The notes under the pieces were generated by a model, which saw only the letters and a program-made list of their open reading frames with translations, did not search any database and was not told the DNA's origin. A DNA stretch of 50,940 bases, taken from positions 1-50,940 of the forward strand of contig CAYGXM010000006.1 in NCBI GenBank assembly GCA_964354105.1, in the 5' to 3' direction. The stretch is from Candidatus Woesearchaeota archaeon (GTDB lineage: Archaea; Nanobdellota; Nanobdellia; UBA10117). Below, piece after piece: positions 4,338 through 28,219 of this stretch. Each line of letters starts with the position of its first letter. The stretch's first letter is position 1. The position numbers and the translations under genes were made by a program.

Positions 4338-5851
4338 TTAGCCCTTTACATTGCCGCAAGGCTTGAATAGGCAGACCTTCTTTGATACGCCTGCAATGTC
4401 CATAGTATCAACGACTTCATTTATGCTTTTGTAAGCCAAGCCAGCCTCTTCAGCCAATCCTGACATCGACACAGTTCTTACATAGATCCCTTCCTTTTCC
4501 ATCTTTTTCTGCAAATCTGTGCCATAGACTTGCCTTTTTGCAGCTGCTCTTGACATTGTTCTTCCAGAACCATGCATTGTACTTCCAAATGTCAGCTCGT
4601 CTGCTTCATCTGTTCCAACGCATAAGTATGAGCCTGTTTCCATGCTTCCGCCAATGATAACTGGCTGACCGGTTTCCCTGTAAATCTTTGGCAGTTCTTT
4701 TCTTGCAGGTCCGAAACACCTTGTTGCTCCCTTCCTGTGCATCACAACTTCTTTTTTATGCCCGTCAATTTTATGCTCTTCAACTTTTGCGATGTTGTGT
4801 GCTACATCATAAATCAGATGCATGCCCAATTTTTCTGCATCCTGTCCAAATACTTGCGAGAAGCCTTCTCTAATCCTATGTAAAATAAGCTGGCGGTTGG
4901 CAAAGCCGTAATTTGCAGCGCAGTTCATGGCTGCAAAATAATCCTGTGCCTCTTTTGATTTAAACGGAGCACAAGCTAATTCTTCATCTCTGACTTTAAG
5001 GCCCCACTCAGGCATTTTATGCCTAAATACATTAACATAATCTGTACATATTTGATGTCCAAACCCTCTGCTACCACAATGTACCATTACAACAATCTGG
5101 TTTTCAAACAAGCCGAATTTCTTTGCAATTTGCTTGTCAAAAATATTTTTTGCTTCTATTAATTGAACTTCAAGATAATGATTTCCGCTTCCTAATGTTC
5201 CAAGTTCTGGGGCGCCTCTCTTTATCGCTTTTGGACTTACTTTTGAAGGGTCTGCTCCTTCTATTCTGCCGTAATCTTCAATCCTGTCCTTGTCTTCTGC
5301 CCAGCCATATCCATTTTTGATGCACCACTGGGCGCCATCTATCATTACATCTTTGTGCTGCTTCTCATTTAGCTTGACAAAACCATGTGCACCTACGCCT
5401 GCAGGAACAGTTTTGAAGAGATGGTCAATTAATTGTTTCAGTTTTGGCTTGACTTCGTCTATTGTCAAATCAGTCCTGACTAAACGCATTCCGCAATTAA
5501 TATCATAGCCTATTCCACCCGGACTTATGATTCCACTATCTAAGTCAAAAGCAGCAACCCCGCCTATTGGGAAGCCATAGCCCCACTAGTCTCTCTTGGG
5601 CCTTAAGAGAAGTGAGCGTCGGGCATGGCCATCGCCGCCTTTTGTATTCCAGGCAAACAAGCCACATTGCTTATCTGTTCAAAGACCGCTAAATCCATTT
5701 GCCCCAGCAGTTTCTCTGTTGCAAATATTCGCGCAGGCACCTGCATAGCAGGAACATCTTTCTTGTAATCTGGAGATATCTCCCAAATTACTTCTGAAAT
5801 GCGCTTTAGCGGCGGCCTTTGTGTTGGTATTTGTATCATGGGCCCCAGCAT
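4338..5851 (-). CDS. rtcB: RtcB tRNA-splicing ligase, split by a 26-nt candidate intron: join(5612..5851, 4338..5585), 495 aa (491 aa from ATG 5839)
   Basis: Exon 1 ends ...LPGIQKAAMAMPDAH; exon 2 reads WGYGFPIGGVAAFDLDSGIISPGGIGYDINCGMRLVRT... and continues with GTLGSGNHYLE, HCGSRGFGH, YDVAHN, HRKGATR, STMHGSGR motifs, all intact. Confidence 0.93.
5586..5611 (-). other. candidate bulge-helix-bulge mRNA intron in rtcB (26 nt)
   Basis: TTCTCTTAAGGCCCAAGAGAGACTAG; 6-bp stem TCTCTT/AAGAGA; two 3-nt bulges AC|U and AG|U around a 4-position helix GCUC/GACU; removal gives CAC|TGG. Confidence 0.75.
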
Positions 5852-8289: not shown

Positions 8290-8736
8290 TTAAATATCAA
8301 TTACAACCTGTGCTCTCCAGCCTTTGCCTTTCTTTTGCAATTCAAACATATGCCAGGTTGCTGCCTTCGCATCTGCCAGAAGCTTGTGCTTTTTCCAGTC
8401 TATTTTATCTCCAGAGATTTCTGCAGTTAATTTCCAAAGCTTGTCTTTTTGTTCAACTTTAACCTTGAACTTTGAGAATATCATTGAATCTGCATCCTTG
8501 TAATATATTATTTCATTTAAGAAATCAACGAGCAAATTATTCAACTCTGCATTCTGTAGTTTAAATACTTTCTTTATTTTAGCTGAAACAGTTTTTGTAT
8601 CAACCATTGTTTCATTCAAAGCGAGAGCTGAATTCTGGAAAAGTTCATTTAGATTCTTGCCAAAGGCTTCAAATGCTATGTCTGCTGTTACAAGCTTTTC
8701 AAGGAAATTAAATTTGCCTGATTTCGCTTTCGCCAT
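8290..8736 (-). CDS. archease (RtcB activating cofactor)
   Basis: TADIAFEAFGKNLNELF, KAATWH, C-terminal VVIDI. Confidence 0.93.
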   Translation of the reverse strand: MAKAKSGKFNFLEKLVTADIAFEAFGKNLNELFQNSALALNETMVDTKTVSAKIKKVFKLQNAELNNLLVDFLNEIIYYKDADSMIFSKFKVKVEQKDKLWKLTAEISGDKIDWKKHKLLADAKAATWHMFELQKKGKGWRAQVVIDI

Positions 8737-8790
8737 GTTGTTGAGCCCAAAATCAGCTTTAAAAAGGCTTTCTTACTATGTTAAAGTTAT

Positions 8791-8915
8791 GCCGGCGTGG
8801 CAGAATCCGGTCCTCAGCAAGCGTAGCTTGGCTATGTTTATGATGGGAAAATAATGCGTACGCCTTGAGAGCGTATGTCCGCAAGGACTTCCAGGTTCAA
8901 ATCCTGGCGCCGGCG
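8791..8915 (+). tRNA. tRNA-Ser(TGA) with ~41-nt D-loop intron (8811..8851)
   Basis: Acceptor GCCGGCG/CGCCGGC plus G73; anticodon stem TACGC/GCGTA with loop CTTGAGA; long variable arm; GGTTCAAATCC T-arm; extra sequence after G18G19. Confidence 0.9.
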
Positions 8916-8956
8916 CTTCTGAAAAGCTTTATAAAACATCAAAAAAGCTGAGACTT

Positions 8957-20940: not shown

Positions 20941-20983
20941 ATTTAATTACAAACATTATAGTGTTTTTAAGTATTTTCAAAAG

Positions 20984-21099
20984 CGCCCGAGGGAAGATTT
21001 GAACTCCCGACCCTCGCATTACTGATGTAATCAGTCCCGCAAAACATCCCTGTTTTGCGATAGGAGTGCGATGCTCTATCCAAGCTGAGCTACCCGGGC
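20984..21099 (-). tRNA. tRNA-Arg(CCT) with 41-nt intron at 37/38 (21020..21060)
   Basis: GCCCGGG acceptor, GCTC/GAGC D-stem, TCGCA/TGCGA anticodon stem, CTCCTA|A loop, TTCAAAT T-loop. Confidence 0.92.
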
Positions 21100-23899: not shown

Positions 23900-23982
23900 G
23901 CCTCCGTAGCTCAGTGGTAGAGCGTCCGTTTCGTAAGGTTCGAAAAAACGGGAGGTCGCCAGTTCAAATCTGGTCGGGGGCA
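23900..23982 (+). tRNA. tRNA-Thr(CGT) with 11-nt intron at 37/38 (23936..23946)
   Basis: GCCTCCG/CGGGGGC acceptor; TTCG/CGAA central helix with bulges TA|A and AA|A. Confidence 0.93.
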
Positions 23983-23987
23983 CTCAA

Positions 23988-28101: not shown

Positions 28102-28219
28102 TGCTAGCGGTCAAAGTACAAGGGCAAAACCCGTTCCCATTCCGAACACGGAAGTTAATCCTTGTAACGTTTGGTTGTGTACTAACCCTCGGGTTGGGAA
28201 ATTCCGAAAACTGCTGGCA
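28102..28219 (+). rRNA. rrf: 5S rRNA (stand-alone)
   Basis: Terminal helix TGCTAGCGG/CTGCTGGCA; conserved CCCGTTCCCATTCCGAACACGGAAGTTAA; ~118 nt. Confidence 0.92.

Follow-up and report, generated by a model that had tools for sequence, protein, structure and literature searches.

The window analyzed here comprises positions 1 to 50,940 of contig CAYGXM010000006.1 from a Candidatus Woesearchaeota archaeon (assembly GCA_964354105.1), a stretch of 50,940 nucleotides (nt) whose minus strand carries the gene for the RNA ligase RtcB (rtcB), interrupted by a candidate bulge-helix-bulge (BHB) intron. The interruption is 26 nt long (5611..5586) and lies between a His codon (5614-5612) and a Trp codon (5585-5583). 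The upstream open reading frame (ORF) (minus strand, 5851..5603; 82 amino acids [aa]) has the C-terminus ...AAMAMPDAH-F-S-stop, the unspliced frame meeting a TAA two codons past the His codon; the downstream stop-to-stop frame (minus strand, 5585..4338; 415 aa) has the N-terminus WGYGFPIGG. The Pfam RtcB model matches exon 2 over model positions 23-426 (E = 1.9e-158), and its positions 1-23 match the last residues of exon 1. Ten relatives from the same family have an intact gene with the uninterrupted motif ...AAMAMPDAHWGYGFP(V/I)GG, in which the window residues MPDAH|WGYG span the same site and (F/Y)P comes next, so removal of the 26 nt would restore the expected RtcB protein. The initial annotation of this DNA had placed a 26-nt insertion exactly between the His and Trp codons, with a TAA two codons on in the unspliced message and an in-frame His-Trp product on exact excision; the ORF coordinates, the reading frame, and the motif of the intact relatives bear it out.

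Exon 2 aligns from its second residue to residues 69-481 of Pyrococcus horikoshii RtcB (1uc2_A, E = 1e-156), which places the interruption between the equivalents of residues 67 and 68. It has no start codon before its residue 33, downstream of the Asp and Cys aligned to 1uc2_A residues 95 and 98, which we take to be metal ligands. Translation of rtcB probably starts at the second ATG (5839), the point from which the gene resembles that of the sister species. The window gene contains one putative intron only, and shifting both cuts by one base gives an identical spliced RNA. The coordinates of the gene, of the predicted RNA structure, and of related features are given in Table 1.

Table 1. Interrupted rtcB gene of the window, predicted elements of its pre-mRNA structure, and genes related to splicing
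Feature	Position	Strand	Evidence or remarks
rtcB exon 1	5612..5851	-	80 codons up to His codon 5614-5612; Pfam RtcB 1-23 at end
Intervening sequence, 26 nt, candidate BHB-type pre-mRNA intron	5586..5611	-	
rtcB exon 2, 415 codons + stop, first codon Trp	4338..5585	-	Pfam; 1uc2_A alignment
Exon-exon helix, 5′ strand GGCCAUGCCC, codons Ala-Met-Pro	5621..5630	-	Minimum-free-energy (MFE) fold; RNAalifold CC/GG pairs
Exon-exon helix, 3′ strand GGGC-U-AUGGCU, codons Trp-Gly-Tyr-Gly	5573..5583	-	MFE fold; RNAalifold
Central helix, exon strand GCUC	5614..5617	-	
Central helix, intron strand GACU	5588..5591	-	Against 5614-5617: C-G, U-A, C.C mismatch, G.U
5′ splice-site bulge AC|U, predicted cut after 5612	5611..5613	-	
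3′ splice-site loop AG|U, predicted cut after 5586	5585..5587	-	Faces GAC 5618-5620
Intron hairpin	5592..5610	-	Stem UCUCUU (5610-5605)/AAGAGA (5597-5592), 7-nt loop AAGGCCC (5604-5598)
Archease gene (RtcB cofactor), 2.4 kb from rtcB	8293..8772	-	PF01951, E = 9e-38
Intron-containing tRNA, 41-nt intron	20983..21099	-	ARAGORN; Rfam
Intron-containing tRNA, 11-nt intron	23900..23983	+	ARAGORN; Rfam

The structure proposed at the outset consisted of an exon-exon stem, an intron stem with a 7-nt loop, a central GCUC/GACU helix containing a C.C mismatch and a G.U pair, and the splice-site triplets ACU and AGU; all of these pairings are present. The accompanying claim of 3-nt bulges at both splice sites stands for the 5′ site, where AC|U occupies a 3-nt bulge between the central helix and the 6-bp hairpin stem, and falls for the 3′ site. 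There, an unpaired GAC (5620-5618) on the 5′ strand, overlooked earlier, separates the exon-exon stem from the central helix; since it lies opposite AG|U, the unpaired stretch at the 3′ site amounts to an internal loop, or alternatively to a GA bulge next to a C-G pair, with no clean 3-nt bulge.

The window genome (723 kb in 14 contigs, 87% complete) contains a single rtcB locus, as does each of five other carriers of the insert with a completeness of 94% or more (one is a single contig), with rtcB in two or three pieces and the EndA catalytic domain unbroken in every case. A sister species (G001), the only other genome of the genus, has a same-site insert of 27 nt, which keeps the frame and contains an in-frame TAA; its stems and splice-site bases are identical to those of the window, and the loop differs by one substitution and one extra base. 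The exons of the two species differ at 47 of 339 comparable nt, amounting to 28 synonymous and seven nonsynonymous codon differences (at least three of the seven fall before the probable start at 5839), which points to purifying selection on both exons. In this comparison, the predicted helices of the insert are better conserved than silent sites.

Same-site inserts are found in many other archaea. One genome per prokaryote species was scanned for Met-Pro-Asp-x-His followed by 12-42 extra nt plus one codon and then Gly-Tyr-Gly-Phe-Pro; of 75 stretches recovered, 70 lie in an rtcB reading frame, and five are chance bacterial matches without rtcB context. The 70 contigs are labeled Woesearchaeota, Aenigmatarchaeota, Micrarchaeota, Nanoarchaeota, "archaeon," or "uncultured Methanosarcinales." A metagenome scan, limited to the Ala-His form of the motif, gave five stretches, four of them genuine (L109, L110, L112, and L113); the fifth (L111:4436-4506) was rejected as a scaffolding artefact in which the rtcB motif region is duplicated around a pair of N. 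Carriers among these 70 genome and four metagenome contigs are mostly labeled as DPANN (small-genome) archaea. Eleven of the bins (L033, L055, L063, L064, L068, L078, L084, L089, L093, L098, and L103) bear the label "uncultured Methanosarcinales," and their rtcB nests among Woesearchaeota- and Nanoarchaeota-labeled sequences, so these labels may be wrong.

With the window and its sister species, the family comprises 76 inserts of 21-36 nt. None is translatable through: 36 break the frame, and the 40 whose length is divisible by three all contain an in-frame stop. Removal of the insert gives in-frame His-(Trp/Ser/Phe)-Gly-Tyr-Gly in all 76, the restored product expected of a BHB intron. Among 401 sampled genomes of the window's phylum, the insert pattern occurs in ten and the uninterrupted pattern in 154 (four of which, G281, G431, G357, and G368, are flagged unpublished), both counts being lower bounds because the pattern demands exact flanks; a reversed-pattern control gave none.

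Intronless relatives also appear to be represented in environmental sequence. Four DNA metagenome runs contain only 4-8% of the sequence words searched for; relatives, not the window organism, are present in them. In metagenome contigs of these relatives, the match of 25 ends breaks off at 5585, where the complement of a His codon follows at once, and at one joint 198 letters are replaced by 172, that is, 26 fewer. We read these joins as intronless relatives, which have no bearing on expression and would provide no independent read support for the window's insert.

Two classes of insert can be distinguished by their predicted cut sites. Class 1 (64 inserts, 63 distinct, the window's included) is cut directly after the His codon. 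Its exon sequence GGYC or GCCC pairs with GRC or GGG located six to four positions from the intron's 3′ end, in the combinations GGUC/GAC, GGCC/GGC, and GCCC/GGG; central pairs 1, 2, and 3 are formed in 63, 61, and 61 of the 63 sequences, the third failing only in the window and G001, and 62-63 of the 63 form hairpin pairs 1-4, each of which occurs in as many as five pair types. In class 2 (12 inserts), the cut lies 2 nt farther on, within the Trp codon, and splicing would likewise yield His-Trp. In all 12 the central helix has four of four pairs (CCAU/AUGG or CCAU/GUGG and, once, UCAU/GUGA, a C-G to U-A double change), and the loops at its splice sites read UG|A and either AA|G or UA|G.

Comparative data indicate that the structure is more than chance. 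A model-free RNAalifold consensus of the 63 class 1 sequences consists of a 3-bp central helix, a 3-nt bulge, a 5-bp hairpin stem, and two outer C-G pairs, and double changes that keep pairing occur at seven of its ten pairs. On that alignment, 98.1% of cells are paired as against 84.1% after shuffling, and the covariation score is 0.477 as against 0.192 (neither value was reached in any of 500 shuffles), statistics that are all inflated by kinship, a caution to be set against the structural case. The structure is taken to be real despite this inflation because of the many pair types and the slid controls: with partners slid by one to three columns, only 33-56% of cells pair, and an alignment-free count gives 97.6% paired as against 41-57% when slid. 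The helices, exon-intron pairs included, are thus kept by compensatory change, as would be expected of a BHB motif, and the early suggestion that relatives should be checked for insertions at the same codon with covarying helices is answered by 74 further inserts.

Codon choice in the exons fits the same structure. The Pro codon located five codons upstream is CCC in 56 of the 63 class 1 genes and in nine of 150 uninterrupted genes (among the matches listed, of 154 in all, counted by eye), and silent sites are predicted to serve the outer helix. All 16 genes with Ser (TCC) directly after His use GGG for the Gly that follows, a choice that would shift the outer helix by one register. Three or more central pairs appear in the MFE folds of 53 of 63 class 1 and 11 of 12 class 2 sequences, and 60 and 11 sequences of the two classes, respectively, leave every base of the 5′ bulge unpaired; these figures suggest that the family motif is a relaxed BHB with a canonical 5′ half.

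The genome encodes the enzymes that splicing of such an intron would need. EndA is represented by one 225-aa alpha-like unit with both domains, encoded on contig C4; among solved structures, it is closest to the Nanoarchaeum alpha subunit and to the Methanocaldococcus homotetramer; the RtcB-type ligase is the product of the interrupted gene itself. ARAGORN in intron mode predicts 30 tRNA genes in the genome, 19 with introns, several of these calls being doubtful (SeC, Pyl, and introns at odd positions); the default mode finds only two tRNAs, so that intron mode is needed. Four of its predictions lie in the window, and three of these contain introns, as had been reported before; Rfam supports three of the four. 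The intron-containing tRNAs would be substrates of the same splicing machinery. The fourth call (8791-8916, plus strand), beside the archease gene, is absent from the Rfam matches and is doubtful. A 5S rRNA gene is also located in the window (28103-28219, plus strand; Rfam, 71 bits).

A genome-wide screen for other BHB-bridged ORF pairs, which has low power and would miss hairpin-less introns of 12-15 nt, gave 584 candidates where 582 are expected by chance, that is, no excess. Stricter filters leave 11 candidates, rtcB among them; by codon-usage score, only three of the others have both flanks in the best coding frame, and Pfam reveals no sign of a split gene in those three.

Our analysis favors the view that the 26 nt are an archaeal BHB-type pre-mRNA intron, cut by EndA and ligated by RtcB, with a probability of roughly 0.85. 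Under this proposal, the codons flanking the insert on the rtcB transcript would pair together as the outer helix, the four exon bases just 5′ of the last two bases of the His codon would pair with four bases near the 3′ end of the intron, and a hairpin would form from the intron's middle, leaving the two splice sites unpaired over a few bases, on opposite strands and with roughly one 4-bp helix between them. EndA would cut both sites, producing the 2′,3′-cyclic phosphate and 5′-OH that its cleavage leaves, and RtcB with archease would join the mRNA halves into an in-frame ...His-Trp... message; the unspliced mRNA would yield just an 82-residue stub. The dependence on RtcB is drawn from the known end chemistry of EndA products. 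The analysis thus establishes the anatomy of the insert, its conservation and covariation, the single rtcB copy, and the presence of the enzymes, whereas cutting by EndA, joining by RtcB, and any regulatory benefit are inferred.

Several observations weigh against this assignment. A search of sequencing runs found no RNA run containing the sequence. A 3′ site in the form of a strict 3-nt bulge closed by the outer helix is not found in the window; in the family, all three bases of this site are unpaired in the MFE folds of only 14 of 63 class 1 and two of 12 class 2 sequences, and the outer helix begins 2-3 nt from the site in class 1 and about 6 nt in class 2, an offset of two to six unpaired bases. 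The fourth central pair of class 1 is G.A in 55 of 63. In the window's MFE fold (-25.6 kcal/mol, z = -2.2), the exon-exon stem and the intron hairpin are formed and the central helix is absent, as it is from the sister-species fold (z = -3.1); constraining the fold to the BHB costs about 4 kcal/mol over the minimum, more than for any other sequence of the set, a rough value since a nonstandard pair was forced. The C.C mismatch in the central helix is confined to the window and its sister species among the 63 class 1 sequences, and the window motif is, as modeled, a relaxed BHB with the weakest central helix of the family. The genome's EndA, a single alpha-like unit, may or may not be of a subtype that tolerates relaxed motifs. 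Finally, a 258-codon frame elsewhere in the genome (C9:3893-4666, minus strand; locus L115) matches PF09414 (E = 2.8e-21), a family of ATP-dependent RNA ligases whose chemistry differs from that of RtcB, and RtcB may therefore not be the only ligase on which the gene could depend. Relaxed BHB motifs are described as being cut by EndAs that carry extra loops, and alpha4-type EndAs with such a loop as common in DPANN lineages with many disrupted tRNA genes (accessible text of PMC5829648); the 3′ site of the rtcB insert fits the relaxed forms described there for broad-specificity EndAs.

The alternative that survives best, which we nonetheless consider improbable, is that the insert is removed from the RNA without EndA or RtcB, by another nuclease, by a self-cleaving fold, or with joining by an ATP-dependent ligase assisted by end-healing enzymes. 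The noncanonical 3′ site, the weak central helix of the window, and the PF09414 gene would all be accommodated by such a route. To our knowledge, 26 nt is far below the size of any ribozyme intron, which counts against self-cleaving removal, and ligases requiring a 5′-phosphate and a 3′-OH cannot directly join EndA products. The conserved 3-nt 5′ bulge, the covarying helix of 3-4 bp, and the hairpin immediately after the bulge are the geometry that EndA recognizes according to the accessible part of PMC5829648, and class 2 goes further, with a perfect 4-bp helix and 3-nt loops. Group I and group II introns were rejected as candidates on the same grounds of size; a DNA transposon was rejected since there is no target duplication and the site is identical across lineages, and an intein at the 26-nt site since the insert is not translatable.

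It is very unlikely that the ribosome hops over the 26 nt without RNA splicing, as on phage T4 gene 60. A hairpin does lie directly after the would-be take-off codon, with a stop within two codons, and all in-frame inserts of the family carry stops, as bypassing would allow. The codon before the landing site, however, never matches the His take-off codon: class 1 introns end in AG, AA, AT, TT, TG, or TA (63 sequences) and class 2 in AA or TA (12), and the base before the terminal dinucleotide is never C (in the 72 of 76 inserts listed). Nor would covariation between the exon and the intron's 3′ end have a role in hopping, and lengths ranging from 21 to 36 nt and class 2 boundaries inside the Trp codon are likewise at odds with it.

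Just as unlikely is a decaying or recently broken rtcB whose function is supplied by the host or by an unassembled copy. The genome is 87% complete, the BHB is degenerate in the window lineage, and DPANN archaea are often host-dependent, according to the available parts of the literature, all of which would suit a pseudogene. Against it stand two open exons with predominantly synonymous differences between species, insert stems that are unchanged while the loop has changed, and the same state in 74 other contigs, among them a single-contig genome whose sole rtcB is in pieces. The argument made in the initial annotation that this is no pseudogene is therefore upheld, and the second intact copy that would have undermined it was looked for in the 87%-complete genome, in which one locus only is present. 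The related idea of an RtcB protein assembled from two separate pieces was rejected, since the first start codon of exon 2 lies past the residues aligned to Asp 95 and Cys 98. An assembly or sequencing artefact can practically be dismissed: the source is metagenome-assembled and the runs searched contain no reads of the organism itself for the region, but the insert turns up again, slightly altered, in the separately assembled genome of a second species and at the same site in 74 contigs under many different record names, and the one actual artefact encountered, the duplication with N, looks quite different.

If the 26 nt are indeed a BHB-type intron, the family appears to have been gained or lost often in DPANN-type archaea. 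In an RtcB tree built by a quick search from the C-terminal 380 residues of 90 rows, with the intron region excluded, one starred clade of 75 rows unites every intron-bearing gene with the window family's intronless genes, in a sample that is biased because intron rows were picked by pattern and intronless rows came from the window's kin only. The window gene is sister to an intronless one (L012, 88% identity); the intron-bearing L109 and L113 are sister to the intronless L006 at a distance of about 0.03, an exact difference of presence and absence. Class 2 genes occur in at least three places among class 1 genes, twice as starred sisters of a class 1 gene, and the tree requires at least nine changes of intron state. 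Presence, absence, and type of the putative intron change between close relatives, gain and loss being indistinguishable. RtcB of family f4 (L029, L030, and others), which belongs to the window's order, is very divergent (about 275 bits against Pfam as compared with 530-585; branch length 6.2). Other families of the same order fall outside the window's RtcB clade, so the gene tree and the taxonomy disagree.

The window's intron itself shares 16 of 20 bases (the first seven and last 13 positions) with introns of Gly-type genes. Its central strand would form four of four pairs with a GGUC exon and forms three of four, with an internal mismatch, with its own GCUC; this better fit to the Gly-type than to its own Ala-type exon hints at transfer of the intron between alleles.

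Further interruptions are located nearby in the same gene. At 13 of the 76 loci (for example L097, L034, L063, L088, and L092, among L032-L106), a second insert of 23-33 nt lies between Gly-Phe-Asp and Cys-Gly-Met, 25-30 codons downstream; its best-scoring cuts fall after the Asp codon or two bases later, its central helix has four of four pairs in 11 of 13, and its hairpin stem has at least 4 bp in nine of 13. Four loci (L044, L079, L057, and L076) contain an insert of 12-15 nt one to two codons upstream of this second site, which in our reading resembles a bulge-helix-loop (BHL). Such rtcB genes would carry two or three mini-introns, and these counts are lower bounds, since some of the 76 loci end at contig ends. 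In-frame inserts of 1.3-1.5 kb are found at the Cys aligned to residue 98 in six loci (L033, L057, L059, L062, L073, and L076) and in three relatives of the window (G010, G017, and G021); with open frames of 560-1,060 aa and a location at RtcB model position ~44-50, the same spot as the second mini-intron site, they are presumably inteins.

These observations lead us to suggest, tentatively and at somewhat less than even odds, that rtcB is a gene into which mobile BHB mini-introns insert preferentially and repeatedly throughout the DPANN archaea, such that the ligase is made only from mRNA repaired by its own pathway. The suggestion draws on two unrelated intron types located 2 nt apart, with sister genes containing different types; on exact presence and absence in near-identical genes (L006 as against L109 and L113); on the further intron sites and inteins 25-30 codons downstream; and on the better fit of the window's intron strand to Gly-type exons. 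If it is true, synthesis of the ligase would be coupled to endonuclease and ligase activity, and rtcB would be a prokaryotic example of introns gained and lost at the mRNA level, in the very gene whose product catalyzes the reaction.

Splicing of this kind would have regulatory consequences. New RtcB would require active EndA and pre-existing RtcB, forming a self-referential positive-feedback loop that relies on inherited protein; we put forward an autoregulatory circuit at rtcB as a hypothesis, and it presupposes that no ligase other than RtcB joins EndA products. An adaptive role, in which ligase synthesis is licensed by endonuclease activity and two steps with harmful intermediates are thereby balanced, seems to us doubtful; it is equally plausible that the intron is a tolerated selfish element in a site unable to drift.

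A full-text literature search, whose coverage excludes most subscription journals, did not find a described rtcB intron, in agreement with the earlier statement that no such case was known. In the available text of PMC7714728, the BHB is known from one mRNA, that of cbf5, to which one Haloferax mRNA substrate (in an untranslated region) was added in 2020. On archaeal mRNA introns, the accessible part of a 2025 paper refers to the cbf5 work alone, and that of a 2026 review mentions the archaeal motif only for pre-tRNAs. RtcB is reported from all archaeal genomes of PMC12918454, the available text of which does not mention interruptions.

The rtcB inserts would thus represent a second gene family with endonuclease-spliced introns in archaeal protein-coding genes, located in another part of the archaeal tree, and the dozens of natural variants amount to a mutational test of the motif. 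Their host gene is the ligase of the pathway, which gives rise to the self-referential loop. There are practical implications as well: in such genomes, gene prediction will split rtcB into two or three fragments or miss it altogether, and surveys of RtcB presence and absence and RtcB trees based on called proteins may be affected. Polymorphism of presence and absence, together with two intron types, makes the spread of BHB introns addressable.

Watanabe is said to have described, in 2002, a BHB intron in the pre-mRNA of cbf5, a pseudouridine synthase gene, of Crenarchaeota. As portrayed in the available text of PMC2738675 (Yokobori, 2009), that intron resembles the one proposed here in being short, in lying in the gene of an RNA-processing protein, in its endonuclease-type motif, and in its presence or loss by lineage. 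Splicing of the cbf5 pre-mRNA is reported there, whereas that of rtcB is predicted here from sequence; moreover, the rtcB host gene encodes the ligase of the splicing pathway, the carriers are DPANN-type lineages and not Crenarchaeota, and rtcB has at least two intron types 2 nt apart and further sites within the gene.

The tRNA and rRNA introns of archaea (hBHBh′, HBh′, and BHL forms, processed by EndA and RtcB) are similar in having unpaired sites on opposite strands with a short helix between them, a cut after the second unpaired base, and sizes of 12-40 nt, as given in the accessible portion of PMC5829648. They differ in that the rtcB substrate is an mRNA, with the exon part of the motif made of codons, and in that its 3′ site is an internal loop and its fourth central pair is usually G.A. 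HAC1/XBP1 splicing (by IRE1, with Trl1 or RtcB), as characterized in the available portions of the sources, likewise removes a short mRNA intron by means of an endonuclease acting at stem-loops and a tRNA ligase that joins the ends, and there, too, splicing changes the frame and switches on production of the full protein; in contrast to rtcB, that system uses the stress-activated IRE1 and encodes a transcription factor instead of the ligase, and there is no evolutionary link. The inteins of rtcB resemble the 26-nt insert as selfish insertions in the most conserved part of the same gene, but they leave at the protein level and keep the frame open, whereas the 26 nt are untranslatable. What is known from other systems is the archaeal mRNA intron of the endonuclease type; what is new is the host gene, the lineages, and the several sites and intron types.

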